Positions 433 through 21,819 of a stretch of DNA of 64,000 bases are shown here, piece by piece (positions within the stretch are counted from its first letter, which is position 1; every line of letters begins with the position of its first letter). The notes under the pieces were generated by a model, which had not been told where the DNA came from, made no database searches, and saw only the letters and a program-made list of their open reading frames with translations. The position numbers were made by a program, and so were the translations under genes. Source of the DNA: a virus (Duplodnaviria; Caudoviricetes); the IMG/VR virus record IMGVR_UViG_3300028048_000066, positions 1 to 64,000 of that record; one strand, 5' to 3'.

Positions 433-1560
433 ATGGCAAAAGAAACAAACAAAAAGAGTAGAACCGTTAATGAATCAAAAAGCAAGAAAACTGTTCTTTC
501 AAATTTACAAAAACAATTTATTATAGACCAACTAATTGAAGATGAAGAGTGGTTAAACGAAGTAAAACCAAGAATAGATGATGTTTGGTATATTACAAAT
601 GATAAGAATGACCCAATGTATGATGGTGATGGGTATTTTTCTTATGTAATTGTAATTGGTGATAATTATGTATTAGATGCTGTTACACCTGAATTTGCTA
701 AGGATATATTAAAAGTAAAAGAAAATATTAAAGAAGCAGCAGGTGATGAGGAAGGCGATGAAGATGATGGTTTTGTATTAGACACCGATGAAGAAGATAC
801 CACAGAAGTCCATTATGATGAAGATGAGTATGAAGAAGAACCAGAGGAAGAGTCAGAACCAGAAGATGAAGAAGATGATGATAGAGACATCAGAATTGTT
901 AGACTTGCAGAATATCTTGATGTTGATTATAATGATATTGAAGAAGAGTTTACACATTGTTATTCAGTAGATGGTGGAGAACAAGAGTGGTATGTACTTA
1001 CAGAAACAGAAGCATATAATGAGGCCTATGATAGTATTGAGAGTTATATTGATGATGTCGGTCCTGTAGATGCAATTGGAAGTTATATAAATGATTACAT
1101 AGATAGAGATGTAGTTATAGATTGGATAGAAGAATTAAATGAAACAAATGTAAATGATTTATACCTTGATGAATTAGTAGAAGAGTGTATAAATAGAGGT
1201 TTGGTAGAACCAGGAGATGTTTATGAGATTGATGAAGAAGAATCTATAGAGCAAAGAAGAGTTGTATATTCTGATAACATTAAAGAAGACATTGATTTAG
1301 ATGATTTAAGAGACAAACTTGTTAATGAATATAATGATGAAATTGGTGACCCTTATGAATATATGGAATTTAACTTTGGAGACGATTGGGTAAGAGATTG
1401 TAGTTTTGATGAAAATGGTTATATTGATGTTGATTCTTGGATTGATGATGTTATTAGAGGTGATGGAGTAGCATACGAATTAGCATCTTATAATGGAGAA
1501 GAAGTAGAGTTAGGAAAAGATGAAGATGGTGAAGAACTCTATGGATATAGAAGAAATTAA
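433..1560 (+). CDS. Very acidic hypothetical protein, candidate internal virion protein
   Basis: AGGAG RBS; D/E-rich; VNES and IKEA motifs; followed by a terminator. Confidence 0.8.
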   Translation: MAKETNKKSRTVNESKSKKTVLSNLQKQFIIDQLIEDEEWLNEVKPRIDDVWYITNDKNDPMYDGDGYFSYVIVIGDNYVLDAVTPEFAKDILKVKENIKEAAGDEEGDEDDGFVLDTDEEDTTEVHYDEDEYEEEPEEESEPEDEEDDDRDIRIVRLAEYLDVDYNDIEEEFTHCYSVDGGEQEWYVLTETEAYNEAYDSIESYIDDVGPVDAIGSYINDYIDRDVVIDWIEELNETNVNDLYLDELVEECINRGLVEPGDVYEIDEEESIEQRRVVYSDNIKEDIDLDDLRDKLVNEYNDEIGDPYEYMEFNFGDDWVRDCSFDENGYIDVDSWIDDVIRGDGVAYELASYNGEEVELGKDEDGEELYGYRRN

Positions 1561-1590
1561 AACAAGAGATACACACGCATAAGAACAAGA

Positions 1591-1622
1591 GAGAGAATCC
1601 TAGAAATGGGGTTCTTTTTCTT
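1591..1622 (+). terminator. Rho-independent terminator
   Basis: AGAATCCTA-GAAA-TGGGGTTCT stem-loop followed by a T tract. Confidence 0.8.
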
Positions 1623-1623
1623 A

Positions 1624-1638
1624 TGCTAAATTAAATGA
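1624..1638 (+). promoter_or_regulatory. Putative phage late promoter TGCTAAATTAAATGA
   Basis: Exact 15-mer that recurs in intergenic gaps upstream of structural-region genes. Confidence 0.8.
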
Positions 1639-1661
1639 TAAAGAAGATACTAGGAGAACAT

Positions 1662-4600
1662 ATGAATCTTTTATTTGAAGGATTTAAGGACTATTATAAG
1701 AGGTTAGAAGAGGAATCTGGTGGTTCTTCTATTATTTATACTTACCAATCACCTAAAGTATTAAAACAATTGAAAAGTGGTAAAACATATATTGCTAATT
1801 ATGATAGAGGTATGATTGGCAAAGAACCATACATAGAACTAGCAAGAGTTTTAGGATTGAATGATTGTCCTATTTTTTGTGGTCTTACTATTGATGATAC
1901 AAATAGAATGCTTGAAGCAAGTGGATTAGAAAAATATGGAAAAGAATTATTAAAACTAAAAGTTCCAAATAAATACATTCACAAGATGGCATATTATGAT
2001 TGGACTGATTACATTTATTTTTGGATTGATAAACAAGAAGAAGACTATATATCAAAGGAAGATGCAGAAAATTCATTAAGAAATTTCTCTGGTCAAGCAC
2101 CTTGTCAAGTAGTTATAGATAGAATAGAACCTTCTTGGTTAGTTGATGAATCATTAACAGAAAGCGATGATAGTAAACAAATAAAATTAAATAATAATGT
2201 ATATGTATTTGTACCTATAGAAATGCTCTCTACAATTTCAAGAGAGGGACTTAAAGATTTTGTATTTTCTAATGTTTCTAATTTATCTAGTTTAAATAGT
2301 TTATTAAGATGGTATGATAAAAATCTTTATAAATTAGGAACTAATTTTAGTGGTATTGGTTATATTGTTGATGAGAAAAAATATATTCTATTAACAATAA
2401 ATAGCAGTAATTTAGATTATTCAAAAATCAAACCATATAATAAAAGTTGGTTAGAAGAATTATATTATTATGATGGGGTAGTGTCTTTTGATAATATAAA
2501 TGTAATTGATTCTATTGCAGGTAGTTGGGGAAGTTCAAACTGGATGTTTAAAAACAAAACCAAACATTATGACAACTTTGATTTTCTAGTGAATCAAGAA
2601 GAATTAAAAGAATTAAAAACTCAAGGAGATGTTCTTGACTATTTGATAAATCTTATATTATCAGATTTAGATGCTACATCAGCATTTTGTAATTTATATT
2701 ATCGTAGAATGGGAATTGATAATAATATGTATTTGTTTAGAAGGGAATCCGATAAAGAGCAAAAAAGAATATTAAAAAATATGTTCAGCGATAATATTGT
2801 AGAAATTAAAGGAAGGAAATCACCAGAGAACAGAAAACAAGTAGTTTATTTATATAGAGGAACATCGGAAAGAACTTTTAGCAAAAACTTTGAATCATAT
2901 GCTGGAATATTCTTTAGTACAAAAAGGAGTGCAGTATCTGGTTGGGGAGAAACTAAAAAATACTTACTAAAGAGTGATGCAAAAATTTATCGTGGTGATG
3001 ATTCTTCAGATAATTTTTGTAGTGCTTATTATAATAAAGAATATCCTGAGTTACAAAAATGCTTTGGTATGTATTTTGGAGATTTAAAAATTAAAAAGAT
3101 TTCGGATTTTTCAAAACTTACTAAAGAACAAAAAGATTATTTAGAGGATAGAGTAGAACAACAAGCAGGAACTCAATTCTGTTGGTATGATGTGTGGACT
3201 TGGTGTACTCAACTTGTCGCTAGAATTGAATTAGAAAAACAAGGATATGATGGTGCTTATTGGACACTTGAAGATTTTGGAAACCCAGAGCAATATCAAA
3301 TATGGAATCTTGATGCTGTTAAGTCTTATGATGGTGTCATTGAATCTATTAGTGAAGCGAAACAATCAAAACCAGAATTAGAAGTGGTTGATTATCGTGA
3401 TTGGACAGAACACACAAAGTTAAAAGATGTTTTAGATATTTGGTCATCCTATTATTATGTAGGTAAAAAGGCACTAAAAACACTACAGTTATTTCACGGA
3501 ACAACTGATTATAATTGGAAAAAGATAAAGAAAGCGGGTGCTATAAAACCAAAGAAATCAAAAAACTTTAATGCTTCTAAAAATGGTTGTGTTTATCTTA
3601 CTTATTCTGAAGATGATGCTTATGAGTTTGTAGGCAGAGCAACAGATTTCAATACTGGTGTTGTTGTTATGGAGATAGACATTAACAAACTAGACCTTGA
3701 TAAGTTATATATAGACACAAACATAGAAGAATACACAGTATATGAAGATGAAAACGGAAAAGAATACTGGGACTTTTGGGCATTTGAATATTATGGAGAA
3801 ATACCAGAAAATGCTTGGATAAATGTTGATATTGATGAATCTCTTAATGAATCTAAACAGGACACACTAAATTTCAAAAACTGGGTAGAAGATAAAGTAA
3901 GTGAACTTGGTATGAGAGATGGTGGTAATAAAGACTCATATGTAAACTCTTGGGTTAATGGATTTGAAAAGAATAGAAGCAGATTAAAAGCACCATTTAA
4001 TGACTACTATTATTGGATTAAACAAAATAACTGGGATGAATTTACAAAAGCATTCTCTGAGATAAGTAAGAAAGATGATACCAAACAAAAAGAGAAAGAA
4101 GGTGCTAAACTCTTATATAACAAAGATGATTGGAAAGTATATGAAATTACTACATATGAAGCAAGTGCTAAATATGGTAAGAATACTAAATGGTGTATAA
4201 GTGGTTCAAAGAGATGGAATAATGGTGAAAACGGAACTAAATACTGGAATGATTATACAAAACAAGGATGCAAGTTCTATTTCTTCATTAAAAACAACAC
4301 TGAAAAATATGCTTTAGTTGTATATCCAGATGATAAAGAGTATGAGATATTTAATCAAGATGATGTACCACTTGCTTATATACCAAATGCTCCAGATGTA
4401 AAAGAGATACCAGTAAACTATAATGAAGATGTTGATAGTGAATTAAAAGAGTTCACCAATTTATTTGTGCAACATAAATTACCTAATGAAGATTTTATTA
4501 TTGAGAATGTGATTGGAAAAATAAATGGTGACTGTGATGGTTATATGTTGTATATGTATAGTCCTAAAGATGCTTACAATGAATTTAGAGAAGATGTTCC

Positions 4601-5012
4601 AGATGATTATATTGAATACTATTTTGAAAACAACCACAGTTTTGATGATTGGGATGGTGATTTTCCATATTTAGTTAATTTTGATTATATTGTAGGCGAT
4701 ATGGAAAAACTAAATAGTGCAGAGGAGTTTTGGGAACTTACAAAGTCTGGTTTAAATAAATATAACTACTTTATATTTGCAGATGATAGTTGGGATGGAA
4801 ATTTTGAAGTGCACTGTCATACAAACTTTAGTGATGCTCTAATAAATATGTGGCAATTAAACTTTTGGTGTGATGGTAATTTTAGTGAGTTCATAAAAGA
4901 GTTTGCAAAATATTGTTTGAATGAGATTAAATGGTGGATAACAAAGACAGATGAAATTGATATACAACCATATCTCAATTTAGGGTTTACAGAAGAGTTT
5001 TTAACTAAATAA
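1662..5012 (+). CDS. Modular polyprotein: DUF3841-like, multiple ADP-ribosyltransferase-like domains, PcfJ-like domain
   Basis: Start moved from 1635 to the ATG at 1662 after AGGAG. Motifs LYRGT..GIFFS, LFHGT..GCVYLT and YEASAKYGKNTKWCIS. Modules are bounded by LEEES, VDESLTES, VIESISEA and IDESLNES. Confidence 0.7.
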   Translation: MNLLFEGFKDYYKRLEEESGGSSIIYTYQSPKVLKQLKSGKTYIANYDRGMIGKEPYIELARVLGLNDCPIFCGLTIDDTNRMLEASGLEKYGKELLKLKVPNKYIHKMAYYDWTDYIYFWIDKQEEDYISKEDAENSLRNFSGQAPCQVVIDRIEPSWLVDESLTESDDSKQIKLNNNVYVFVPIEMLSTISREGLKDFVFSNVSNLSSLNSLLRWYDKNLYKLGTNFSGIGYIVDEKKYILLTINSSNLDYSKIKPYNKSWLEELYYYDGVVSFDNINVIDSIAGSWGSSNWMFKNKTKHYDNFDFLVNQEELKELKTQGDVLDYLINLILSDLDATSAFCNLYYRRMGIDNNMYLFRRESDKEQKRILKNMFSDNIVEIKGRKSPENRKQVVYLYRGTSERTFSKNFESYAGIFFSTKRSAVSGWGETKKYLLKSDAKIYRGDDSSDNFCSAYYNKEYPELQKCFGMYFGDLKIKKISDFSKLTKEQKDYLEDRVEQQAGTQFCWYDVWTWCTQLVARIELEKQGYDGAYWTLEDFGNPEQYQIWNLDAVKSYDGVIESISEAKQSKPELEVVDYRDWTEHTKLKDVLDIWSSYYYVGKKALKTLQLFHGTTDYNWKKIKKAGAIKPKKSKNFNASKNGCVYLTYSEDDAYEFVGRATDFNTGVVVMEIDINKLDLDKLYIDTNIEEYTVYEDENGKEYWDFWAFEYYGEIPENAWINVDIDESLNESKQDTLNFKNWVEDKVSELGMRDGGNKDSYVNSWVNGFEKNRSRLKAPFNDYYYWIKQNNWDEFTKAFSEISKKDDTKQKEKEGAKLLYNKDDWKVYEITTYEASAKYGKNTKWCISGSKRWNNGENGTKYWNDYTKQGCKFYFFIKNNTEKYALVVYPDDKEYEIFNQDDVPLAYIPNAPDVKEIPVNYNEDVDSELKEFTNLFVQHKLPNEDFIIENVIGKINGDCDGYMLYMYSPKDAYNEFREDVPDDYIEYYFENNHSFDDWDGDFPYLVNFDYIVGDMEKLNSAEEFWELTKSGLNKYNYFIFADDSWDGNFEVHCHTNFSDALINMWQLNFWCDGNFSEFIKEFAKYCLNEIKWWITKTDEIDIQPYLNLGFTEEFLTK

Positions 5013-5030
5013 AAAATTTTCATAAACACA

Positions 5031-5059
5031 TTTAAATTCTATTTCAATTGTTGTATAAT
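5031..5059 (+). promoter_or_regulatory. sigmaA-like -10 element (TTGTATAAT) in an AT-rich intergenic region
   Basis: TATAAT at 5054-5059; weak -35. Confidence 0.45.
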
Positions 5060-5107
5060 ATAATAGATAATAATAAATATAATACTAGATATAATATTAC
5101 TATTAAA

Positions 5108-5168
5108 ATATTTTGCTAAAGCAAAATATCGTAAACATCATTAGATGTTTACTTTATAGTATTATAAA
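5108..5168. repeat. Three tandem inverted repeats
   Basis: ATATTTTGCT/AGCAAAATAT (5108-5129), GTAAACATC/GATGTTTAC (5131-5152), TTTATA/TATAAA (5153-5168). Confidence 0.8.
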
Positions 5169-5188
5169 CATATAGATATAAAAATAGA

Positions 5189-5203
5189 TGCTAAATTAAA
5201 TGA
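5189..5203 (+). promoter_or_regulatory. Putative late promoter TGCTAAATTAAATGA
   Basis: Exact motif copy. Confidence 0.8.
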
Positions 5204-5235
5204 TAAAATATATAAATATGGAGATATAGTATACT

Positions 5236-6804
5236 ATGATACCTAGAGAAAGAAGTATTAAAGAAAGAGATATTGAAGTAAAAGATGACAATATTGATGA
5301 AATTGAAGCAACAACATATGATGAATTATCTAAAATAGAAGATGAAACAATAGAAGAAGATGAGAATGCTATTGTTGATACTATTTATAAATTATCACAT
5401 ATTAGAGATATAGATGGAGAAGACACACCATCTTATTGTTTTGTTCACGACATTACAGATACATTTGGTTTAAGTGAAGATGAAGCAGTAGGAATTGCTA
5501 AAGACAATGGTTATGTTGTTTATGAGATTTTACCAAATGGGGATGTAGATAGTGGGTTAGTTATTGCAGATAGGGATTGTTCAAAAGATTTAATTAGCAC
5601 AGACTATGAGAAATTCTTTGGTGTAGAAATTGAAATCAAACCTTATGGAGAAGAAGTTGAAGATAAGGTTGAAGTAGAAGAAACACCAGATGAAATAGAA
5701 GTTGAGAAAGAAGTTGAAGTTAAAGATGAACCAGTAGAAGAAGCATTAGATAATATTAAGAATAATGATACTTGGGAAGAATCACTTAAAGAAGATAAAG
5801 GAAGTTTTGATTTAGTAAAAGAAATCACAACAGACCCAGATGCAGAGAAATATATTGCACAAAATGGTAAGACCTGTTATAGAGTATTTGGAACATTAAA
5901 TTGGTATTTCTATAAATGTGAACAAGCAGGAATTAAACCAGTTCAAGAAGATGATTTCTTATATACAGCAAAAGGAAATGGTTATGAATTTGATTGGGTA
6001 GAAGAAGATTGCATTTTAGCATTAGATAAACCATTAAAAGAGAGCAAAAAACTTAATGAAATGCACTCAGTTCAAGATTATAAGGGTTATGAACTTGATT
6101 TTAATGAAGATTCAATTCACGATATGTTAGAATTAGGTTTATCTAACTATGTTGATAAAGATTTAATAGAGATTACAAAAGATGGTAAACACATTGCTTG
6201 GGCAAAGAGTTATTCTGATGCTAGAAAGATTGTTGATGAAAAAACAAAAGAAGATGAAGTACAAAAACCAGAAGAACATCCTATCACAGTTATTTTTAGA
6301 ACTCTAGGTAATTATAAAGTAGGAGAAATAAAGAACACATTGCGTAGTTATCAAAAAGCAGTTGGTGGGTATATAGATGCTTTTGCTTTCCCAGGAAGAG
6401 ATGATATTGATATTGTTCATAGAGAATATGGAGATAAAAAAAATGAAGCATTAGTTATTGTAGGTCTTAATAAGGATACAAACTGTTGGTGCAGTCTAAC
6501 ACAAGAACAAATTGATTATGTAATGAATTATGTAAAAAATAATGTACTAGAGTCATATGGTGATAATGTTTTACATATTGGATTGCCTGTTACAATGAAT
6601 GGTGATAAATTAAAGAAATTCAACACAAAGAGTGGTATGGATAGATATAAAAACTCAAACAATGGTTACAGATTCCAATATTATAAAGTACCAAAAGATG
6701 AGTTCAAATATGCAAAGAAAGAAACAAAAGATGATGAACAAGCATTTTTCAAACTTCAAGATAGTGGAAGAGCAGTAGAAGAAGAAAAGAAAAATAACGA
6801 ATAA
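5236..6804 (+). CDS. Acidic modular polyprotein with a DUF3846-like module
   Basis: GGAG RBS. EIKNTLRSYQKAVGGYI..ALVIVG..SLTQEQID module. VEEA, EESLKED, LKES, LNEM and VLES motifs. Confidence 0.7.
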   Translation: MIPRERSIKERDIEVKDDNIDEIEATTYDELSKIEDETIEEDENAIVDTIYKLSHIRDIDGEDTPSYCFVHDITDTFGLSEDEAVGIAKDNGYVVYEILPNGDVDSGLVIADRDCSKDLISTDYEKFFGVEIEIKPYGEEVEDKVEVEETPDEIEVEKEVEVKDEPVEEALDNIKNNDTWEESLKEDKGSFDLVKEITTDPDAEKYIAQNGKTCYRVFGTLNWYFYKCEQAGIKPVQEDDFLYTAKGNGYEFDWVEEDCILALDKPLKESKKLNEMHSVQDYKGYELDFNEDSIHDMLELGLSNYVDKDLIEITKDGKHIAWAKSYSDARKIVDEKTKEDEVQKPEEHPITVIFRTLGNYKVGEIKNTLRSYQKAVGGYIDAFAFPGRDDIDIVHREYGDKKNEALVIVGLNKDTNCWCSLTQEQIDYVMNYVKNNVLESYGDNVLHIGLPVTMNGDKLKKFNTKSGMDRYKNSNNGYRFQYYKVPKDEFKYAKKETKDDEQAFFKLQDSGRAVEEEKKNNE

Positions 6805-6887
6805 TATATAATAAACCGATAAGTGATTTAGGTAATGAAGGTAAATTATTTGTTTATTCAAAGTTACCAAAATCAATAGAGGAAAGT

Positions 6888-7283
6888 ATGAATGAAGATA
6901 TTGAAAAACACGAAACACTAAACCCTTTACTCTGGAATGAAGATAATACATTGAAACCAGAAGTAAAAGAAAAACTTATGCAAATAGCAGATGAGTTTAT
7001 TAAAGGTTTAGAAGAAGACGGTATCAAAATGGATGTGGATGATATTAAGATAGTTGGAAGCAATTGTTCTTACAACTATACAAAAGATAGTGATATTGAT
7101 TTACACATTATAGCAAAAAATATAAAAGCACCAAAAGAAGTGTATGCTCTTTTATATAGTGCTTATAGGTCATTATGGAATAAAAACTATGATATTGATT
7201 TTTACGGTATTCCAGTAGAGATATATGTAGAAACTCCTGAACTAGATACTGTAGAACCAACAACAATAGATGTAGAGGAATAA
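6888..7283 (+). CDS. Pol-beta-superfamily nucleotidyltransferase, N-terminal (catalytic) half
   Basis: GS..(x)..DIDLH motif and a downstream PVEIYVE strand; the frame is also open upstream to 6798. Confidence 0.75.
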   Translation: MNEDIEKHETLNPLLWNEDNTLKPEVKEKLMQIADEFIKGLEEDGIKMDVDDIKIVGSNCSYNYTKDSDIDLHIIAKNIKAPKEVYALLYSAYRSLWNKNYDIDFYGIPVEIYVETPELDTVEPTTIDVEE

Positions 7284-7285
7284 AT

Positions 7286-10117
7286 ATGAAATTAGAAAAG
7301 GTAAATTTAAGAGAAAACAGAATCCTAACAGAAGGCACTAAGTATGATAAACAAGCAGCAAAGATACTTTCAGATTCTGGTTTATTTGATGCAGAAACAA
7401 GCGAAAAGATAATCAATGCTTTATTTAGAGAAGACATTCACGCATTTGTTCACGCACCTAACTGGTTAGAGAAATACTTAAAAGGTATTGCTAGAATGAT
7501 AGTTGAAGAATCAAACGGTGATACAAATAAAGCAAGAGAGTTCTTAATGGAATGTCCTAGTGTATTTGATGAGTATTTAACTTGGATTAGAGAAACTAGA
7601 GATAAAATAGAAGACCAAAAGGAAAAAGAAAAACTTGATGCTGAATTTGTAAACACTATGCATTATAAAGATGTAAAAGATACATTAGAAGATATTCAAG
7701 CACAAAGAGATGAGCAATCAAGACAAGAACTTGCAAATATGAAGTTCAAACAATCAGATTATACATTAGTTCCAATTGATTCATATGAGCAAATGCACGA
7801 CACATATGGTGGTCATTGGACTGGAGATGGTTCTTCTGATAAGTATGCTGGTGGTGGCGGAACTGCTTGGTGTCATACAAACAATAAAGGTGTATATGAC
7901 AGTTGGGTAAGTGGTGGAAATAAGTTCTTTGTATTGCAACATAACGACTGGAAAGATATACCATTCAACCCAAAAACAAATAAAGAAGAAAAAGGTAAGG
8001 ATGCTTATGGTAATTCTTTAATTGCTTTAAGAATATCTCCAAAAGGAAAGATACTAAATGCAACATTAAGATGTAACCACACAGGTGTTCCAGATTTAGC
8101 AGATAACCAATATCGTACTTATTCTGATTTATCAAAATTAGCAGGATTTAATGTTGAAGATGAAATGAAAAAATATTATGACATTAAACCGTTTGATATG
8201 AAGTCATTATTCAAAATAGATGGAAATGGCGTGATGAATCGTGACTATGATTATTATAGAGAGTGGGCAGAAGAGGGCAGTGAAATTACTAAGGTTGTAA
8301 TTCCAGATGGAGTTATAGCATTAGGTGATAGTGTATTTTCTGATTTTCGTTCACTAAAAGAGGTAAAACTTCCAAGCAGTCTTAAAATAATTGGTAGTAA
8401 TGCCTTTTATAATTGTAGTAGTTTAGAGAACATAGACTTACAAGGAATTGAAGTTATTGATGAATATGCTTTTAGAGGATGTAGGCAATTAAGTGCTATT
8501 ACACTTCCAAGCACCATAACAACACTTGAAAATGGTATATTTAATAATTGTGAAAAATTAAAGAGCATAAATATTGAGTGTAGTTTGACTGAATTACCTG
8601 CAGGCATTTTCTATTACTGCTCAGGTTTAGAGTCTATACAATTACCTGAAACATTGGAACTTATTGGAAATGCAGCATTAGGTGGAACAAGCATAAAAGA
8701 GATAACAATTCCAAACGGGGTTACAATTATAGCAGATAATGCATTTGTTTCTTGTAAGAATTTAGAAAAAATAAATTTACCAGAAGGTTTAAAGAGCATT
8801 GGTCGTTCTGCATTTTCTGGTGATGTTTTATTAACTGAAATTGATATTCCTGCTGGTGTCACTACTATTGGGGCTGAAGCATTCCTGGGGAGTGGAATTA
8901 AAAAAATAAATCTTCCTGCTGGAATAAAAGAAATTCCATACTGTGCATTTAATAATAGTGCTATTAGTGAAATTGAGATTCCAAATGGTGTTGAATCAAT
9001 TGGTGAGAGGGCATTCTCCTCATCTTCTCTTATAAAAGTAACAATACCAAGTTCTGTTAAAAAAATAGAAAGTGGAGCATTCTATTATTCATCATTAGAA
9101 GGGACTCTTAAATTACCAGAAGGACTTAATGAAATTGGTGATTATGCATTTAATAGTTGTTCAAACTTAACAGAAATTGAAGTACCAAACAGTGTAAACA
9201 AACTTGTTGGTAATCCATTTGATTGGCATACTATAATAAGAACAGACAATGATTATGTGGTTGAATATTGTATAAATAGAGGCCTTACAGTTGTATCTGA
9301 AAATCAACCAAAAGGAAGACCATATGTAATTTATACAAGAGATGATTATTTAAGAAAATATGGTGATGAAGATATTTCTTTTGAAGATTTTGTAGACAAA
9401 GCATTAAAAGAAATCTATAAGAAATTAGCATTTGTACAAGTTGATAAAGACACATATAACATTGTTGGTAGAAACTTTGTAGATGCTTCTAAACTTCAAA
9501 CATTATTAAAGCATCTTACATCTGGTGATAGAGAAGATGGATATGAAGTTAGATATATTAACAATGAAAATGAATCACTAAATTCAAATGAAAAAACAGA
9601 ACAACTTCAAGAAAAGATTGTAAAGAAGGGTTCTAAATATCAAGTACAAAGTGAAAAAGGAAGAAATCTTGGAACTTATGATACAAAAGAAGAAGCAGAG
9701 AAGAGATTAAAACAAGTAGAGTACTTTAAGCATAAAGATGATATTAAAGAAGCAGTACAAGACCAACCTCTAAAGTCTAATGGAATTTATTCAGTAAAAG
9801 AAGATAAATGGATAAAAGAACCAGTACAAACAGATATTCCAGATATTGACTATGATGCTTTTGAAGAACAATTCAAGGGTTGGGAAGATAGATATTTTGA
9901 TTTAGTAGAGAATGCAGGAGTATCTAATGTAGAAAAGATAGCAGAGATTGAGAACTTAATTGAAGACTTATATAATTTAAGAAAAGAAAGTCTTGCAAAA
10001 GATGGAGAGTATGCTATAGGAAATCTAGTATTTAAAGAAGCAAGAAACTTAGGATACCTAGATGAATTAAAAGAATTAAAAAACGAGTTAAAGAGTAAAG
10101 AATTAAGTTTAGAATAA
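7286..10117 (+). CDS. Polyprotein: PcfJ-like, BspA-type leucine-rich repeats, small beta-beta-alpha module, C-terminal half of the nucleotidyltransferase
   Basis: TAWCHT motif; about 23-aa LP..L..IG..AF..C..L..I repeats (about 8280-9230); C-terminal SNGIYS..KWIKEP..RKESLAKDGEYAIGNLVFKEARNLGYL. Confidence 0.75.
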   Translation: MKLEKVNLRENRILTEGTKYDKQAAKILSDSGLFDAETSEKIINALFREDIHAFVHAPNWLEKYLKGIARMIVEESNGDTNKAREFLMECPSVFDEYLTWIRETRDKIEDQKEKEKLDAEFVNTMHYKDVKDTLEDIQAQRDEQSRQELANMKFKQSDYTLVPIDSYEQMHDTYGGHWTGDGSSDKYAGGGGTAWCHTNNKGVYDSWVSGGNKFFVLQHNDWKDIPFNPKTNKEEKGKDAYGNSLIALRISPKGKILNATLRCNHTGVPDLADNQYRTYSDLSKLAGFNVEDEMKKYYDIKPFDMKSLFKIDGNGVMNRDYDYYREWAEEGSEITKVVIPDGVIALGDSVFSDFRSLKEVKLPSSLKIIGSNAFYNCSSLENIDLQGIEVIDEYAFRGCRQLSAITLPSTITTLENGIFNNCEKLKSINIECSLTELPAGIFYYCSGLESIQLPETLELIGNAALGGTSIKEITIPNGVTIIADNAFVSCKNLEKINLPEGLKSIGRSAFSGDVLLTEIDIPAGVTTIGAEAFLGSGIKKINLPAGIKEIPYCAFNNSAISEIEIPNGVESIGERAFSSSSLIKVTIPSSVKKIESGAFYYSSLEGTLKLPEGLNEIGDYAFNSCSNLTEIEVPNSVNKLVGNPFDWHTIIRTDNDYVVEYCINRGLTVVSENQPKGRPYVIYTRDDYLRKYGDEDISFEDFVDKALKEIYKKLAFVQVDKDTYNIVGRNFVDASKLQTLLKHLTSGDREDGYEVRYINNENESLNSNEKTEQLQEKIVKKGSKYQVQSEKGRNLGTYDTKEEAEKRLKQVEYFKHKDDIKEAVQDQPLKSNGIYSVKEDKWIKEPVQTDIPDIDYDAFEEQFKGWEDRYFDLVENAGVSNVEKIAEIENLIEDLYNLRKESLAKDGEYAIGNLVFKEARNLGYLDELKELKNELKSKELSLE

Positions 10118-10118
10118 G

Positions 10119-10133
10119 TGCTAAATTAAATGA
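10119..10133 (+). promoter_or_regulatory. Putative late promoter TGCTAAATTAAATGA
   Basis: Exact motif copy. Confidence 0.8.
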
Positions 10134-10155
10134 TTAAGTAATAAGAGGTAAATAT

Positions 10156-12303
10156 ATGTCAAAAGAAGTAAAGAAAAGCAATGTAAAGGAATTACCTGGT
10201 CTTAATGGCAATGCTTATTCTGCAAGTAGATATTTATATACAAACATCAAGAAAAGACCTTTAGTAGTTGAATCAAAGAAACAAAAGAAGTTAAATGAAA
10301 AGATTACTTATGAGTTTGATGATAATGGTGGAATTATTGTTTTATCTACTGATGTAAATGCACAACAACTTTCACAAAACAAGTTAATGAATTGGATTAA
10401 GAAGAAAGTTGCAACATTAAAGAATAGAGTTAGTGCAGATAAAAACATCAAGAATGCGGTACTTAATAATGTTCCAGAAACAGGTTGGACAGTAGGTAAG
10501 TATTTAAGAGGAAGATACCACGCAGCAGATGGTAGTGATTTTGATGAAAACTCATTATCAGTTGAATTACTTGGACTACCTACAGATGTTTTAGTTAGTA
10601 TTGCAGAGGACTTATGTAATGAGTTCAAGCAAGAATCAGTTATAGTTAAAGACTACAATAAAAACAAAGTATATATTGTAAATGGTGAAAAAGAGGTAAA
10701 AGAGGAAAGTATGAACGAAGATTATTGGCAAAACACAAGTCACTCAGCAAGAGTTAGAGAGTATGAAGATGGAACAAAAGAGTTATATTCTTATGGAACA
10801 CTTATTGCAACAATCAAACCAGATGGAGATGTTGAATTAACAAGATATTGGGACTATTCCAGAACAACAGGACAACACTTAAGAGATTTCTTGAGAAAGT
10901 ATGGCATTGGAAATTATGGTGCATCTAAAGATATTTACAATGACCTTATAAGAAAGAGAAAGGTAAAGACAGATAACATTGAATTAAGAAAAGCATCAGC
11001 ACTAGACAATGCAATAGAGTGTATTAGATTTGGTGATGGTGATAAAGATGAATGTGACTGGTGTGGACTAAGTGAAAAAGACTTTGATGAAATTTGGAAA
11101 CAAGCAAAGAAAGAAGTAAGAGAATTAAATAAGAAAAAGAAAAATAATACAAATAAGAAGGAAGATAAAGAAATGAAAGAAGCAAAGTACACACAAAGAC
11201 CAGAGAAGTTAATCAAAGAGTCTAAAGATGAGTTTGATATTAAAGACTATTTAGACATTGAGTTAGAAGATGATAATTCAGGTGAAGGTGGAATTGAGTT
11301 TGAAGGTGAAACCGTAAGAGATTTTATTGGATATTGTGGTTATGATGAAGATGGAAATTTTGATGTAGAAAATGCAGATGAATATTGTAAACCAATAACA
11401 TCATTGAAGCAATTAAATAAAGAATTAAAGGACTGTGGTATTAAACCTTTGAAATCAAAGAAATCCATTAAAGAAGATTTTGAAGATGTTGAGTACGAAG
11501 AAGAAATTGAGTTTTTTGGTGGTGATGAAGGTGATTTAGATGTAGAAGACTTCATAAGTGAAAACGAAGATTGGTTATCATCTGATTATGAAGATTATTA
11601 CTATGACTGGGATGATTATAGAAAGGGATATGTTTTATATGGTATAGTTAATAAAGTTAAAGATTTGTCTGATGATGAATTACTTGATTATATTGTAGAC
11701 AACTTTGAAGAAATTACAGGTAAACCAGTAGATGTTGTATATAATGAGTATGATGAGAATGATGATGCACAACCAATATTTGACCAAGATGGAATTGATG
11801 CAACAAGTGATAAAATAAGAGATTTCTTGTCAACAATAGCAAAAAAATCAGATAGAGAAATTGATGATTTATTTTATAAGTTAGATGATATTTTGACAGA
11901 TAGATTGTCTGAATCTTGTGAAAAGAAGTCAATTAAAGAAGGTAGAGCACAAATTTATCAAGATATGGAAGATGAGTACTTTGATGCATTAGCAAAAGCA
12001 GAAAAAAGTGGAAATGTAGAATACTGCGTTTTAACAGATACAGATGAAGAATGCTTTGGTAATTTTAAAAAGGCAGTTGAATTTGCAAAGAAAAATGGTG
12101 TAGATGAAATTGAAATCAAACCTTTTACAGTCAATCTTGGATACAACTATTTCTTAGATGATTATGACACAGAAGATTACAAAGGTGTTATTGTTGATTT
12201 AGATATGAATATTATTGATTATCTTGATGAGTCTTGCAAATCAAAGAAACTTACAAAGAAAGTAGTAAGAGAGAGCAAAGCAAATAAAAACAATAAGAAA
12301 TAA
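10156..12303 (+). CDS. Acidic modular polyprotein, candidate internal virion protein
   Basis: GAGGT RBS; many [ILVM]xE[SADG] sites; modules include ..LCNEFKQESVIVKD and LYSYGTLIA..YSRTTGQH. Confidence 0.75.
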   Translation: MSKEVKKSNVKELPGLNGNAYSASRYLYTNIKKRPLVVESKKQKKLNEKITYEFDDNGGIIVLSTDVNAQQLSQNKLMNWIKKKVATLKNRVSADKNIKNAVLNNVPETGWTVGKYLRGRYHAADGSDFDENSLSVELLGLPTDVLVSIAEDLCNEFKQESVIVKDYNKNKVYIVNGEKEVKEESMNEDYWQNTSHSARVREYEDGTKELYSYGTLIATIKPDGDVELTRYWDYSRTTGQHLRDFLRKYGIGNYGASKDIYNDLIRKRKVKTDNIELRKASALDNAIECIRFGDGDKDECDWCGLSEKDFDEIWKQAKKEVRELNKKKKNNTNKKEDKEMKEAKYTQRPEKLIKESKDEFDIKDYLDIELEDDNSGEGGIEFEGETVRDFIGYCGYDEDGNFDVENADEYCKPITSLKQLNKELKDCGIKPLKSKKSIKEDFEDVEYEEEIEFFGGDEGDLDVEDFISENEDWLSSDYEDYYYDWDDYRKGYVLYGIVNKVKDLSDDELLDYIVDNFEEITGKPVDVVYNEYDENDDAQPIFDQDGIDATSDKIRDFLSTIAKKSDREIDDLFYKLDDILTDRLSESCEKKSIKEGRAQIYQDMEDEYFDALAKAEKSGNVEYCVLTDTDEECFGNFKKAVEFAKKNGVDEIEIKPFTVNLGYNYFLDDYDTEDYKGVIVDLDMNIIDYLDESCKSKKLTKKVVRESKANKNNKK

Positions 12304-12326
12304 TAGTAATAATAATGTATAAAAAT

Positions 12327-12359
12327 AAATAGAGTGTTTAGAAGTAGGCACTCTATTTT
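12327..12359 (+). terminator. Rho-independent terminator
   Basis: AAATAGAGTGTTTA-GAAG-TAGGCACTCTATTT. Confidence 0.8.
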
Positions 12360-12381
12360 AATAATTATAGAGAAATATTGT

Positions 12382-12396
12382 TGCTAAATTAAATGA
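12382..12396 (+). promoter_or_regulatory. Putative late promoter TGCTAAATTAAATGA
   Basis: Exact motif copy upstream of the neck gene. Confidence 0.8.
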
Positions 12397-12421
12397 TAGA
12401 AGAATAGCATAGGAGAAATAT

Positions 12422-13144
12422 ATGACATTACAAGAATATGTAGACTTTATAAAGTTCCAATTAACTGGCGGTGTGTTAGAATTAGAGATTTCTGATGATG
12501 CAATTGGAAATGCAGTTAAGATAGCATTAAAAGAAGTTCAAAGATATATTGACACAACAAAGTTAATTACTGTTCCTTATGCTTCTTGTATAGACCTAAA
12601 GGATTTCAAATGTAGTTCTATTGTAAAGGTTTATAGAACAGAAGGATACACAGGAGATGCAGGAACTGATGGATTTATTGAAGGCAGTGCAATAGACCCA
12701 ATGTATGTTCAGAGATGGATGGCATTCTCTGCTGGTGGTACTATGTATAACTTAAATAACTACTTATTGAATTATATGAGTTATAATACACTACTCCAAA
12801 TGAGAAATACAACCACAACTGATATGGCATTTAAAATAGATAAAACTGCTGATAAGTTATATATAAATGCTGGTTACGATTATCCAAAGAGTGTTACATT
12901 AGAGTATGTTCCTATTTATGATACTGTTGATGAAGTAACAAGTGATTATTGGATTGATATTTTAGAAAGATATTCACTTGCTATAACAAAGACTATTTTA
13001 GGAAGAATTAGAACAAGATACACACAATCTAATGCTTTATGGACACAAGATGGAGAAAGAATGTTAGAAGAAGGCAATAATGAACTTTCAGCATTAAGAG
13101 AAATATTAAGAACAAATAGTACATTGTTCTATCCAGTAGACTAA
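12422..13144 (+). CDS. Neck / head-tail adaptor (T4 gp13-like)
   Basis: N-terminal IKFQL.GGVLELEISDDAI..A...AL and C-terminal LGRIR.RY..DGERMLEEG..EL resemble gp13. Confidence 0.7.
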   Translation: MTLQEYVDFIKFQLTGGVLELEISDDAIGNAVKIALKEVQRYIDTTKLITVPYASCIDLKDFKCSSIVKVYRTEGYTGDAGTDGFIEGSAIDPMYVQRWMAFSAGGTMYNLNNYLLNYMSYNTLLQMRNTTTTDMAFKIDKTADKLYINAGYDYPKSVTLEYVPIYDTVDEVTSDYWIDILERYSLAITKTILGRIRTRYTQSNALWTQDGERMLEEGNNELSALREILRTNSTLFYPVD

Positions 13145-13161
13145 TTAAACAGGAGTTATAA

Positions 13162-14778
13162 ATGAGAAATTGTATTTATTTAACAGATGATTTATATAAG
13201 TTCAACACACTTAGTGAAGCATTAAATCACGCACACAAAAACCCAGAAGTCACAAAGATTACAGCAAGAGAAATCTATAATGTCTGTGATGAAGATTTAA
13301 GAGAAGAAGTTGTTTGGGTTAGAAATGAACTAAACGAAAAGAAAGCAAAACTACCTAATGTTATCACAGTTAAAGCAAAAGATTTATTAAGAAAGAACCT
13401 TATTTGTAATGATGACTTAGATAAAATTGAAGACAAAGATGTATTTAATAAAGTAACATCTAAAGTTGGAGATTATTTAGATAACAAGATGGGAAAGGAT
13501 GGAACTTGGAGCAGTTTTGTTATTTCAGTAGAAAGAGATAAAAACGATAAACCAGTAAACTTTGTATGTTCTGGCATTGAGTGGGAAGATGATTCTGTAG
13601 ATGAAGCATCTAAAGTCAATGAAGCATTAGCAAGTGGTAATATAGAAAAAGCAAAAGAACTACAAGATGAACAAGATGCTTTATATGATGAAGCAGATTA
13701 CTGTGATGACCACAATCAACCAGAGAGAGCAATTAGAAGTAGACACGAAGCAAACAAACTCCAAAAGAAAATTGATGAATCACAAGAATTAACAGAATCA
13801 GAAAACAATGTTAAGAATTTAATCTGGTCTAATTATTATGATGACATAGATGTAGATGCTTGGAGAGATGTTTTCGCTGATGAAATTTCTTATGATTATG
13901 ACCTTGATAATCCAGAAGAAAAAGAAGAGTATGAAGCAAGAGTAAATGATGACGATGAAGTTTTTGATTGGGCTATTGGGATGAACAATGACCAATTTGA
14001 AGAAGAAGTTTATATGTTATCTGACATTGAATATCCAAAAGGAATTTTAGTTATAGCAGATTTAGGTTTGTGGAATGGAAATGTTACTGGATATAAAGTT
14101 ATAGAATCAGGAAAACTTGAAGATTGTTTTGAATCAGAAGATGACTATGTAAGATGGTATGTAGACAATGATGATGAATTTGCATATGATGGTTCAAATC
14201 ACGATGGTTCAAATCACTATATTTATAGAGCAATAAGAGAAGATGCAGATGAAGAACTTCTTGATAAACTCTATGATACAATTTATAATGGAAAGTATAG
14301 AAGTAATAGAGGAACTGGTACAGGACAAACAATAAATAAACTTATGTTAGATGAATGTACTAGAAAGATTGGACCAGATATTTTAAGAGAATATGGTATT
14401 GAAGAAGGACTTAAAGAAGGAAAGAAAAAGAAGAAGAAAGACAAAGTAAGATTTGTTGGTAATCCAGAAAAAGAGATTGCATTCTTCAATAATGCTATGG
14501 GAAACCAAGTAGCAACAGCAGATGGTGGTGTTGGTGCAGTATCTATGGGTGAATCAATTGAATCAGATTATCAAAAGATATTAGATAAGCACAACATTGG
14601 TAAGAGTTCTTTTGTTCCTAGCACATCAAGAGAGTGGTGTGATTTAAAGATTATATCAGACACAGATACTTGGGCAGAAGATGAACCAAACTTTACACCT
14701 GAGTTTAGAAAAGATGTTAAGAGTTTTATTAGAAGAAACAAAGACTTCTTCAATAAAGTTGAAAAAGATAATAAATAA
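13162..14778 (+). CDS. Acidic modular polyprotein
   Basis: AGGAG RBS; LNEK, VDEA, VNEA, IDES/LTES, IEEG/LKEG and MGESIES motifs; IADLGLWNG..GYK..HDGSNHY module. Confidence 0.75.
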   Translation: MRNCIYLTDDLYKFNTLSEALNHAHKNPEVTKITAREIYNVCDEDLREEVVWVRNELNEKKAKLPNVITVKAKDLLRKNLICNDDLDKIEDKDVFNKVTSKVGDYLDNKMGKDGTWSSFVISVERDKNDKPVNFVCSGIEWEDDSVDEASKVNEALASGNIEKAKELQDEQDALYDEADYCDDHNQPERAIRSRHEANKLQKKIDESQELTESENNVKNLIWSNYYDDIDVDAWRDVFADEISYDYDLDNPEEKEEYEARVNDDDEVFDWAIGMNNDQFEEEVYMLSDIEYPKGILVIADLGLWNGNVTGYKVIESGKLEDCFESEDDYVRWYVDNDDEFAYDGSNHDGSNHYIYRAIREDADEELLDKLYDTIYNGKYRSNRGTGTGQTINKLMLDECTRKIGPDILREYGIEEGLKEGKKKKKKDKVRFVGNPEKEIAFFNNAMGNQVATADGGVGAVSMGESIESDYQKILDKHNIGKSSFVPSTSREWCDLKIISDTDTWAEDEPNFTPEFRKDVKSFIRRNKDFFNKVEKDNK

Positions 14779-14807
14779 GAAATAAACTATATATAGGAGA
14801 AATAAAT

Positions 14808-17210
14808 ATGAATTATATTGCAGAAGCATTCAAATCACTAGAAGATGTAGATGATAGCATTGTTGTAAGTCAACCAAAGCAAGACATCAAAGAAAGTGTA
14901 AAGAAAGTCAACAATAAGAAATCCATTAAAGAATCTTGTAAACCTATCAAAGAAGATAAAGATTTATTTGAACCAGATAAGAAATACAGTGTTTATGAAG
15001 ACCCAAAGCATTGTGTTGATATGATACACTCTATTATTGCTTATAGTAGAGATTTCAAAGATGGTGAAGATTTAGTTCAAGAGCAAGAACATAAATATAG
15101 AAACTATTTAGACAACTATATTGATGCTATGGGCAGAGATAAAGTTGTTGAGTTAGCAGATATACAAGTAAAAAGACCGCACAAAATTGAAAAGGCAGTA
15201 TATACAGACAGCGAAGGTTTATCATACAATTCTTTAACATTCTTGGATGGACACGAAGATTTATGGTTAGGTGAATCTTGTGAAAAGAAAGCAGTTAAAT
15301 CTAAAAAGTCTTTGAAAGAAGGTTATGCACCAGGATTTTATTGCTATGAAGAGGAAGAAGATTATGAATGTGAAGATGAGGGTGAACTAGAAGATTATGT
15401 AATGGGATTTGAACCATATAATCCTACCATTGAATATTGGTATGATGAGGATGAAGGCGTAGGACACATTACTTGGGAAAGTTCCTCTTATACAGACATA
15501 ACAGATGAAAAAGAGAATTCAATAGACACTGACATCACAGTTAAAGAATTATTAGATATGTGGTGGAATAGTGTAAGAATCAAAGGTGGAAAAATTAAAG
15601 GAACAGCAATACTTTATAAAGATTGTAAAGATGGTTCATATGAATTAGATAAAGACAACAATCCATATGGTGAAGCAATTTTAGATATGGTTGTTCACAC
15701 AAAAGATGAGTGGGATGATGATGGTGATGGATACCCAATCATTTATGCCACAATTGAAGGGGACAAAAAAGAATCTCATAAATCAGTTAAAGAAGAGGCA
15801 TCTTGTAAATTTGTAGTAGTTGCAAACAAGAATGATGATAGAAAAGAATTTGATAGCAAACAAGATGCTATTGCTTATGCTAAAGCACACATAAAAGATG
15901 AACCAAAGGTATTTGATTGTGATAAGAAAGAAATTTGGAACTATCAAACACCTGAATATAAGAATATAAAAGAAGGCAAGAAAGCAGTTAAAGAAGAATT
16001 AGAAATAGATTATGATAAAAATGGTTTACCTAAAGAAATATATGTAGATTATGAAGATTTAGGATTATACGAAGAAGACTACTTAATTTATAATGAAGAT
16101 GTGGACTTCGGAGAAGATGTAAGAAATAGATATGATGAAAAGGAGTTGCTTGAATCTATCAAAGAGTATTTAGATGAAAACTATAAGGATATAAAAGTTG
16201 TAAGTTTTGACTATTCACTAGAAATTAACTGCTACAACCCTAGAGTTTGTATTTGTGATATTGTTTGGGAAGATAAAAAGTCTAAAAAGGAATCTAAAGA
16301 ATCAAAAAAGTCAAAGAAGAAACTTAAAGAAAGTGAATCAATTAACCTTATGGATGATGAAGATATTAAGAAAGGTCAAGAAATCTTAAATTCTGAAAAG
16401 AAAGAAGAAACAGAGCAAATTGTTGATGTAGATGCAGATACAATTGATAAACTCAAAGATTCATATATTGGTAATGTAATTCTTCAATGCCCAATTTGTA
16501 GAACTTTAATCTATAAGAAACCAGACTTACTCAAGAAGGATGAAGAAACTGACATTTATAACAAAGATGAAGAGTGTCCTCACTGTGGTTCTGTAGATGG
16601 ATTTGATTTAGTAGGACAAGTTGCATCTCTTGATGTAGAAGCAGAAGATAAAACAATTGAAACAACAGGAACAGATGTTGAAGTTAAAAAAGACATTGAA
16701 GTTGAAAAAGAACCTGCTAAAACAGAAGAAGAAGATGAAGAAAAAGAAGAATTAAAAGATAAATATGACTTACCAGATTTACCAGATGTTGAAGGTAAAG
16801 AAGAAGAGATTAAGTTTGAGAGTTTAGATAACAGAAAGTTTGATAGACTTGTAAACAGATATGCACATAATGTTTATGAGAACTTCAAGGGATTTAAATC
16901 TACAAACGGAAAGGTAGACAATGAAAAGAATATTATAATTATTGAAGGCCTAATTTCGTTTAAGGATGGAAAAAATGTGAAGACAAGATTTGTATTCAAT
17001 AAACTCACAGAATCACGCAGAGGCGATTTAGTTAAGTTTAGAGGTATAAATGAAACATTCTCAAAAGGTAAGAATGCATTCACACTTTCTGCAAAAGTAG
17101 AAAACAAAGAAATTGTTTGTGAATCTTTAAAATATAACTACAAAGCAAAGTTAAATGAAGAGTTTGTTTTAGTTAAAGGTAAAGTAGACAATAAAGCAAA
17201 AAGAAAGTAA
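14808..17210 (+). CDS. Modular head-associated protein with many IKES-type linkers and a CxxC...CxxC zinc ribbon
   Basis: AGGAG RBS; CPIC and CPHC; Lys-rich KKSIKES linkers. Confidence 0.7.
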   Translation: MNYIAEAFKSLEDVDDSIVVSQPKQDIKESVKKVNNKKSIKESCKPIKEDKDLFEPDKKYSVYEDPKHCVDMIHSIIAYSRDFKDGEDLVQEQEHKYRNYLDNYIDAMGRDKVVELADIQVKRPHKIEKAVYTDSEGLSYNSLTFLDGHEDLWLGESCEKKAVKSKKSLKEGYAPGFYCYEEEEDYECEDEGELEDYVMGFEPYNPTIEYWYDEDEGVGHITWESSSYTDITDEKENSIDTDITVKELLDMWWNSVRIKGGKIKGTAILYKDCKDGSYELDKDNNPYGEAILDMVVHTKDEWDDDGDGYPIIYATIEGDKKESHKSVKEEASCKFVVVANKNDDRKEFDSKQDAIAYAKAHIKDEPKVFDCDKKEIWNYQTPEYKNIKEGKKAVKEELEIDYDKNGLPKEIYVDYEDLGLYEEDYLIYNEDVDFGEDVRNRYDEKELLESIKEYLDENYKDIKVVSFDYSLEINCYNPRVCICDIVWEDKKSKKESKESKKSKKKLKESESINLMDDEDIKKGQEILNSEKKEETEQIVDVDADTIDKLKDSYIGNVILQCPICRTLIYKKPDLLKKDEETDIYNKDEECPHCGSVDGFDLVGQVASLDVEAEDKTIETTGTDVEVKKDIEVEKEPAKTEEEDEEKEELKDKYDLPDLPDVEGKEEEIKFESLDNRKFDRLVNRYAHNVYENFKGFKSTNGKVDNEKNIIIIEGLISFKDGKNVKTRFVFNKLTESRRGDLVKFRGINETFSKGKNAFTLSAKVENKEIVCESLKYNYKAKLNEEFVLVKGKVDNKAKRK

Positions 17211-19822: not shown

Positions 19823-19837
19823 TGCTAAATTAAATGA
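19823..19837 (+). promoter_or_regulatory. Putative late promoter TGCTAAATTAAATGA
   Basis: Exact motif copy upstream of the sheath gene. Confidence 0.8.
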
Positions 19838-21804: not shown

Positions 21805-21819
21805 TGCTAAATTAAATGA
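21805..21819 (+). promoter_or_regulatory. Putative late promoter TGCTAAATTAAATGA
   Basis: Exact motif copy. Confidence 0.8.

Follow-up and report, generated by a model that had tools for sequence, protein, structure and literature searches.

We analyzed an array of large open reading frames (ORFs) at positions 433-17210 of a 64,000-bp stretch of phage DNA (IMG/VR record IMGVR_UViG_3300028048_000066; Duplodnaviria, Caudoviricetes). This stretch, hereafter the window, represents the first 64 kb of a genome of 148,163 bp. Most of the array ORFs encode strings of unrelated small modules with the motif [ILVM]-x-E-[SADG] at their joints, and the original prediction was that they are late polyproteins cut in the prohead into effectors for injection. 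The genome has a 127-bp terminal overlap, as found in a circular or terminally redundant molecule, and its IMG/VR record estimates it to be complete. It has a G+C content of 30%, and of its 155 ORFs with a length of 100 amino acids (aa) or more, 133 are on the plus strand. Every ORF is intact under code 11, and an alternative genetic code was unneeded. As the genome is circular, the genes found just upstream of window base 1, across the junction, belong to the neighborhood of the array. Toward base 1, these genes are ordered terminase, portal, protease-scaffold and major capsid protein. The portal protein is of the T4 gp20 type (PF07230), and the major capsid protein belongs to the Gp23 family (PF07068) and also matches T4 gp23 structures. 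On the other side, the genes for tail sheath, tube and hub begin at 19890. The array therefore lies in the interval from the capsid gene to the tail genes of this phage, a myovirus whose head is of the T4 type.

The closest deposited capsid proteins, with approximately 33% identity, were from Bacillus phages SP-15 and vB_BceM-HSE3 and from Listeria phage LIS04. A megablast search with the first 20 kb against deposited phages returned no match. Our comparisons used 52 related IMG/VR loci with capsid protein identities of 42 to 70%, among which the array island is hypervariable. In two of these relatives (L025 and L028) the portal gene is split into two ORFs, for which an intron, recoding or faulty assembly could be responsible. 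The stretch between the capsid gene and the array (genome 144208-145948) encodes a Stealth_CR2 protein and a family-2 glycosyltransferase. The features of the array are given below in window coordinates, with ORFs named by their first position and a slash marking the candidate cut.

433-1560, plus strand: ORF 433, acidic protein, excluded from the polyprotein system
1625-1634, plus strand: GCTAAATTAA, late promoter-like, directly before candidate polyprotein 1; other copies at 5190-5199, 10120-10129, 12383-12392 and 19824-19833, and also at 21806, 30700 and 40832
1662-5012, plus strand: candidate polyprotein 1 (ORF 1635 from its likely true start, Met10); doubled sites VDESLTES 2142-2165, VIESISEA 3336-3359 and IDESLNES 3831-3854; modules include 3465-3830 (a standalone 123-aa protein in relatives) and 3855-5009
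5236-6804, plus strand: candidate polyprotein 2 (ORF 5236); DUF3846 module 6283-6531; sites EESLKED 5776-5799, LKES 6034-6045 and VLES 6544-6555
6888-7283, plus strand: ORF 6888, N-terminal (catalytic) half of a nucleotidyltransferase of a 245-aa family; starts MNE/D
7286-10117, plus strand: candidate polyprotein 3 (ORF 7286); N-terminal region with LTE/G 7325-7336, then BspA-type leucine-rich repeats (LRRs), IKE/A 9743-9754 and the C-terminal half of the nucleotidyltransferase 9776-10114
10156-12303, plus strand: candidate polyprotein 4 (ORF 10156); leader region with VVE/S 10264-10275; SAM-lyase-like module within 10156-10698; junctions MNED 10711-10722, MKEA..IKES 11173-11223, IKED 11467-11478, LSESCEKKSIKEG 11905-11943 and LDES..VRES 12223-12276; small module 11221-11475, between IKE/S and IKE/D, matching the 65-aa family phrog_30135
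12422-13144, plus strand: head-tail adaptor (neck) gene, phrog_211 adaptor Ad2 (E 7.7e-10); context, not cargo
13162-14778, plus strand: candidate polyprotein 5 (ORF 13162); central module 13801-14418 of a widespread standalone family of ~181 aa, flanked by IDESQELTES 13771-13800 and IEEGLKEG 14398-14421
14808-17210, plus strand: candidate polyprotein 6 (ORF 14808), a clade-conserved head-module protein with inserted candidate cargo; leader MNYIAE/A 14808-14828; Lys-rich IKES/IKES/IKED 14886-14957 (three motifs in a row); module A 14955-15290; LGESCEKK..LKEG 15267-15323; module B 15321-15764; LKE/S 16323-16334; conserved core 16332-17207 with a zinc ribbon, an acidic linker and a C-terminal beta domain

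Probable late expression of the array

The motif GCTAAATTAA, usually found as TGCTAAATTAAATGA, occurs 23 times in the forward orientation and never in reverse in the genome. It precedes ORFs 1635, 5236, 10156 and 12422 as well as the genes for portal, protease, sheath and other structural proteins, and it is probably the late promoter. ORFs 6888 and 7286 would belong to the unit that starts at 5236, and ORFs 13162 and 14808 to the one that starts at 12422. Genes that look early instead have sigma70-type promoters (TTGACA-N17-TATAAT). One such promoter precedes ORF 147634, which wraps around the genome junction and ends at window base 407; the following ORF 433 is its paralog. With no late motif between these two genes, ORF 433 appears to belong to an early-promoter unit, and the motif is not in excess there (4 vs. 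4.2 and 1 vs. 0.6 expected). The original prediction had grouped seven large ORFs, most of them downstream of the late motif, into one array. The late motif does stand before polyprotein ORFs 1635, 5236 and 10156, but ORF 433 looks early, is not enriched and was removed from the group. The adaptor gene at 12422, conserved in 14 related loci, shows no motif excess either.

Motif enrichment

All nine motif strings quoted in the original prediction were present in the ORFs to which it had assigned them. We counted the motif in every protein and compared the counts with two types of shuffles, one of whole proteins to control for overall composition and one within 15-residue windows to control for local Glu, Lys and Ser content. 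With the latter, [ILVM]xES was found 25 times in the eight array ORFs for 6.6 ± 2.6 expected, and 10 times in the protease-scaffold and capsid proteins for 1.7 expected. Three similar large ORFs elsewhere in the genome (95629, 125623 and 131726) had 17 copies for 5.2 expected. The remaining 160 proteins of the genome had no excess (42 vs. 41.9 expected), and their density was 1.1 copies per 1,000 aa as compared to 4.9 in the array. The motif pattern described in the original prediction thus holds once composition is corrected for. The broader [ILVM]xE[SADG] was found 64 times in the array (31.0 ± 5.4 expected with 15-aa-window shuffles), and the extended form ES[LI]xE 6 times (0.5 expected).

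The signal is carried by ORFs 1635, 5236, 10156, 13162 and 14808, with z values of 2.1 to 5.1 for [ILVM]xES. Copies of this four-residue motif numbered 5 in ORF 1635 (1.2 expected), 5 in ORF 10156 (0.9 expected) and 4 in ORF 13162 (0.6 expected), while ORF 5236 had 8 copies of [ILVM]xE[SADG] (3.5 expected). ORF 7286 was enriched for [ILVM]xE only (31 vs. 20.9 expected). The reversed motif SEx[ILVM], of equal composition, was enriched in none of the protein sets (5 vs. 6.5 expected in the array), and neither were shifted variants or variants in which Asp, Gln or Lys replaces Glu at the cut site. Tail, baseplate and fiber proteins, many of them encoded in late-motif units, had no motif excess. 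The Stealth_CR2 and glycosyltransferase genes carry 1 and 0 four-residue motifs, respectively, and thus serve as internal negative controls.

Head protease, scaffold and capsid protein

The original prediction placed the protease gene outside the window, and it was indeed found in the flanking sequence, on the circular genome approximately 8.7 kb upstream of window base 1.

Genome 139766-141355: Peptidase_S77 protease-scaffold, 529 aa; approximately the first 170 residues form the protease, and the remainder is a long helical scaffold-like tail

Residues 30-169 match Pfam PF03420 (Peptidase_S77) with 50.6 bits for a cut-off of 27, and the protein also matches phrog_207, head maturation protease (E 2.7e-34), and the T4 gp21 structure PDB 5jbl (E 1.5e-5). 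Its GELGHP and GVSSRG blocks align with GELNAP and GVASRG of the 5jbl chain. We take these blocks to hold the catalytic His and Ser, and the crystallized 5jbl chain to be a mutant.

The protease-scaffold itself contains 8 copies of [ILVM]xES for 1.2 expected, and its homologs in 37 relatives contain 232 for 44.5 expected, with 44 copies of the reversed motif. The capsid protein carries L-N-E/A, and none of the 40 aligned relatives departs from [LIM]xE/[AS]F at residues 46-48; the same alignment has a second site, [ILVY]-[SA]-[ED], at residues 13-15. The invariant site lies roughly at the end of the T4 gp23 propeptide, as the mature T4 chain aligns from around query residue 39-49, and its counterpart in T4 gp23 is LTE/A at 63-65. 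The motif anticipated in the capsid propeptide was thus recovered. As a positive control, the same test was applied to T4 proteins: gp22 had 10 copies (2.9 expected, 1 reversed) and gp21 had 6 (1.1 expected), with no excess in sheath and tube. Across 37 to 47 relatives, the motif marks both the scaffold tail of the protease and the capsid propeptide. Based on the scaffold relatives, the capsid site and the T4 control, the motif is the predicted cut site of this protease. In the relatives, [ILVM]xE[SADG] seemed depleted from the terminase (18 vs. 42 expected) and the portal protein (46 vs. 60 expected), which might reflect avoidance of protease sites.

Leaders and the family of ORF 14808

A site was present within the first 20 residues of 10 of the 14 head or polyprotein ORFs, as compared to 9 of the 114 others. 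For ORF 1635, the true start is probably Met10, because the late motif overlaps the first ATG. This start gives MNLLFE/GFKDYYKR, nearly identical to the beginning of an LRR protein at genome 142858, beside the capsid gene.

The most informative case was ORF 14808. Its relatives (364 to 580 aa) are always encoded after the adaptor gene and begin with MNY[LI]xE/AFK..LxE/[SD], of which the MNY[LI]xE/AFK part is conserved in all eight aligned members. Behind this start they have a zinc ribbon and an acidic stretch, then a middle part that varies and, at the C terminus, a domain that is conserved. ORF 14808 has the family leader (MNYIAE/AFK), then approximately 480 aa of extra modules, and LKE/S exactly where homology resumes; its residues 1-6 align with the relatives, as does everything from residue 503 on. 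Standalone homologs exist for modules A and B, and homologs on other contigs carry LTE/G, LKE/S and IKE/S at the corresponding module ends. Over the whole family, 38 copies of [ILVM]xES were counted for 7.4 expected, with 2 reversed. Only the colinear core of ORF 14808 was modeled with AlphaFold, as full-length alignments placed the domains of relatives on the wrong modules and were discarded. In this model, the junction is predicted to be disordered.

Candidate sites and module boundaries

Module edges were defined by homology, independently of the motif. The six boundaries with at least four supporting subjects were 2, 10, 1, 0, 6 and 1 aa from the nearest site, for a null median of approximately 33. 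When all 21 boundaries were taken together, the distance had a median of 15 vs. 33 (p 0.017); this larger set includes noisy singletons from truncated metagenomic proteins. In ORF 1635, residue 732 is the last one matched by the standalone protein (123 aa) of relatives, and the next block starts at residue 737; both edges abut IDESLNES (733-740), and the homology-defined boundary (residue 734) is 2 aa away from a site. Residues 214-419 of ORF 13162 correspond to the standalone family of ~181 aa, of which 56 homologs align from their own residue ~5 to the end, and the two boundaries of this module are 1 and 0 aa from a site. Module 1 of ORF 10156 ends at residue ~178 in 102 homologs, 10 residues before MNE/D. 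In ORF 5236, VLES lies 5 aa past the DUF3846 module, which is paralogous to a module of ORF 95629. Outside the window, in ORF 131726, homology to a 276-aa protein of relatives begins at LSES/LDEA (two motifs).

A relative of ORF 10156, P0057, is 95.5% identical over residues 1-357 and diverges exactly at IKE/S. Behind its own IKE/S it has entirely different modules in place of residues 353-689 (window 11212-12222), and it is nearly identical again over the last 30 residues. The difference between the two proteins is a cassette exchange bounded by linkers. The AlphaFold model of ORF 1635 was built on a shallow alignment, a word-based search for short homologs having yielded 7 proteins. Its mean confidence was 51 and only the C-terminal module was confident, with values rising from 50 to 86 right after IDESLNES. 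The original prediction located the motifs at domain boundaries, and this stands for the six well-supported boundaries (0 to 10 aa from a site) but not for at least three sites within predicted beta-strands.

Module identities

The DUF3846, LRR and nucleotidyltransferase labels of the original prediction were confirmed by Pfam, PHROGs and BLAST. DUF3846 was identified in ORF 5236 (E 1.2e-7), and BspA-type LRRs in ORF 7286 (Pfam LRR_5, E 1.8e-84). According to BLAST, the 245-aa nucleotidyltransferase family is split in this phage: its residues 5-119 correspond to ORF 6888 (131 aa) and its residues 127-231 to the last 113 aa of ORF 7286. Approximately 820 aa of LRRs and other unrelated sequence separate the two halves, and the C-terminal half directly follows IKE/A. 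The SAM-lyase-like label has distant support. Module 1 of ORF 10156 itself scored below the Pfam cut-off (E 0.0046), but 25 of 40 homologs matched the SAM lyase family PF23780 (best E 2.6e-6), and the profile of the module's own family matched Svi3-3 in the PDB with E 0.012. The ART-like and PcfJ-like labels given to ORF 1635 were not reproduced, with Pfam E values of 0.02 to 0.24 only and nothing from Foldseek, and a DUF3841-like label for this ORF likewise lacked significant support.

Pfam searches of separate modules with E up to 1 gave only non-significant matches to DUF3841 (0.024) and Tpt1 (0.24), and PHROGs gave nothing for four array ORFs. No peptidase domain embedded in the chains was found in Pfam and PHROGs scans, and the Pfam search found none of the polyvalent signature domains ART-PolyVal, MPTase, SNF2 and ParB in the window ORFs. 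A sister ORF outside the window (genome 125623-131736, 2,037 aa) does carry ART-PolyVal (E 4.8e-21), the only significant ART match, together with GNAT. Elsewhere in the genome (107588-111132 and 134313-134819), self-BLAST revealed five genes sharing a common N-terminal segment of approximately 18 to 40 aa with divergent bodies.

A candidate system for loading capsid cargo

Considering the motif statistics, the position of sites relative to module boundaries, their conservation, the protease family and the late-promoter context, we infer packaging, cleavage and injection of the array products. In this phage with its T4-type head, the late ORFs are likely to encode polyproteins that serve as capsid cargo and on which the head protease acts in trans. 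Each chain would start with a short leader ending in a protease site, similar to the propeptides that target T4 internal proteins and Alt to the capsid, and continue with unrelated modules joined by [ILVM]-x-E and then S, A, D or G, the joints often being doubled (E-S-L-x-E) or set in Lys-rich linkers. The chains would be incorporated into the prohead core, where the gp21-type Peptidase_S77 protease, fused to its motif-rich scaffold, would cleave after Glu. This would release separate small proteins (SAM-lyase-like, DUF3846, LRR, the nucleotidyltransferase halves and many of unknown fold), which would remain in the head and probably enter the host along with the DNA. Cargo seems to have been gained by in-frame fusion of once-separate genes and by cassette exchange at linkers. 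The polyprotein idea of the original prediction thus gains from the S77 protease, the sites in scaffold and capsid proteins, the module boundaries, the leaders and the late motif, and loses ORF 433, the ART and PcfJ labels and the sites in beta-strands.

Several observations weigh against this interpretation. The phage is an uncultured metagenomic contig known from its sequence alone, and roughly half of the [ILVM]xE[SADG] matches correspond to chance expectation. ORF 7286 has a weak motif signal (7 vs. 5.4 expected), and at least one junction, that after module B of ORF 14808, reads SVKEE and has no canonical site. Counts pooled over relatives are not independent, as these share ancestry. In the C-terminal domain of ORF 14808, three conserved [ILVM]xE[SAG] sites (16938-17120, residues 711-771) lie in predicted beta-strands and may therefore be structural rather than cut, or be exposed only on unfolding. 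Foldseek searches of the PDB with both AlphaFold models (ORF 1635 and the ORF 14808 core) gave no significant match. Short stretches of linker DNA recur in different ORFs (KKSIKE, ESCEKK). Lastly, positions 10698-10722 of ORF 10156 are a 92% copy of 6875-6899, which contain the ribosome-binding site and ATG-AAT-GAA-GAT start of ORF 6888. The copy sits at the end of module 1 and is read in frame as EES-MNED; it has the appearance of an internal start or of a scar left by gene fusion. Together, the shared linker DNA and the relic start suggest that the chains were built by fusion and recombination, and part of the motif pattern could thus be inherited scars.

The last two observations lead to the most serious alternative, in which the linkers are only fusion or recombination scars, hotspots or generic flexible linkers within intact multidomain polyvalent proteins that stay uncut, whether packaged or not. 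The shared linker DNA, the copied start of ORF 6888 and the relative of ORF 10156 that breaks exactly at a linker and rejoins for its last 30 residues all speak for this explanation. It fails, however, to account for the 5-fold enrichment of the oriented motif in the scaffold tails of 37 relatives, the invariant capsid-propeptide site, the lack of enrichment of the reversed and Asp- or Gln-substituted motifs and the same signature in T4 gp22, and we regard it as unlikely. The two ideas are also compatible. A cuttable joint tolerates fusion and would be a safe place for recombination, so a fusion origin fits cleavage as well as it feeds this alternative.

The large ORFs could also encode auxiliary core or scaffold proteins that are degraded to peptides leaving the head, with nothing functional delivered. 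Such a fate has precedent in T4, where gp22, gp67 and gp68 are cut into many fragments that are mostly expelled (PMC9026906), and it would suit products that are acidic and in places rich in Lys and Glu, as well as the conservation of the ORF 14808 family in the head-neck module. We find it improbable given that the modules are folded domains with standalone homologs outside T4-type phages (the 181-aa family, the SAM-lyase-like family with its hundreds of members, LRR, DUF3846 and nucleotidyltransferase), that the sites are concentrated between modules and not throughout, and that the island is hypervariable, unlike essential scaffolds. It is more improbable still that the products are late cytoplasmic multidomain enzymes, never packaged, with a motif excess that is a by-product of composition or secondary structure. 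The neighboring Stealth_CR2 protein and family-2 glycosyltransferase are indeed ordinary enzymes, and some motif copies do fall in beta-strands. Yet these same island enzymes carry 1 and 0 four-residue motifs, the tail, baseplate and fiber proteins, many of them in late-motif units, show no excess, and effects of composition are taken out by shuffling locally and by the control with the reversed motif.

Returning to capsid cargo, a broader version is that T4-type phages of this clade use the head protease as a general cargo-loading system, in which the product of any gene fused in frame behind a short leader or cuttable linker would be packaged and later set free as a protein of its own. We put this forward tentatively, as a doubtful extension. 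In such a system the ORF 14808 family would be a natural carrier, with cargo inserted between two cut sites, and in the extreme case the nucleotidyltransferase halves could be reconstituted after a cut at IKE/A.

Relation to known systems

In T4, gp21 removes the short propeptides that direct internal proteins and Alt to the core, and Asp at the cut position prevents this processing (PMC9026906). The array resembles T4 IPI-III and Alt in several respects: the same protease family (Peptidase_S77) with a Gp23-type capsid protein and a gp20-type portal, the hydrophobic-x-Glu cut rule with a scaffold riddled with sites, short N-terminal leaders ending in a site (3 to 10 residues here, 7 in T4 Alt and 10 in IPIII) and cargo genes that are accessory and hypervariable. 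It differs in that T4 cargo is single-function and end-trimmed, whereas up to approximately six unrelated modules per chain are found here with sites between them, and in that the protease is fused to the scaffold. No homology to T4 internal proteins or Alt was found for the array ORFs.

Polyvalent proteins have been proposed to be injected and processed by embedded peptidases, namely zincin (MPTase) or C-terminal assemblin-like peptidase domains (Iyer, Burroughs, Anand, de Souza, Aravind, 2017; PMC5512222). The likeness to the array lies in long chains of unrelated conflict-type domains beside virion genes, in the proposed entry into the host with DNA and processing into units, and in the sister ORF with ART-PolyVal and GNAT. 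However, the window ORFs lack signature polyvalent Pfam domains and an embedded peptidase, and their joints instead carry the site of a separate head protease that would act in trans.

A third comparison is with the ejection and inner-body proteins of phiKZ, 201phi2-1 and SPN3US (gp175/gp245), phages in which a gp21-related protease also cuts many head-internal proteins after Glu (PMC10052503, PMC9026906). In phiKZ-type phages and SPN3US, gp21 relatives cut head proteins at [A/S/G]-x-E, and Ser is preferred just after the cut in SPN3US gp245 (PMC10052503). Ser is likewise favored after the candidate cut here, and several sites per propeptide are another shared trait. The residue two positions before Glu is Ala, Ser or Gly in those phages but hydrophobic here, and the documented cuts there remove propeptides rather than separate functional modules. 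No homology between their substrates and the array ORFs was found.

The array is best read as T4-style capsid cargo combined with the polyvalent-protein idea. Our full-text literature searches found no paper on a separate head protease cutting between polyvalent-protein domains. If this reading is true, it links T4 capsid targeting and gp21 processing with polyvalent proteins, which have been handled separately in the literature. One head protease and a four-residue joint would then be sufficient to load many host-takeover or anti-defense proteins into a capsid, swappable as cassettes. It would also provide a sequence rule for recognizing injected proteins in uncultured phages, in that their domain joints would repeat the motif of the scaffold of the same phage, as well as a natural design for packaging foreign proteins into phage heads.

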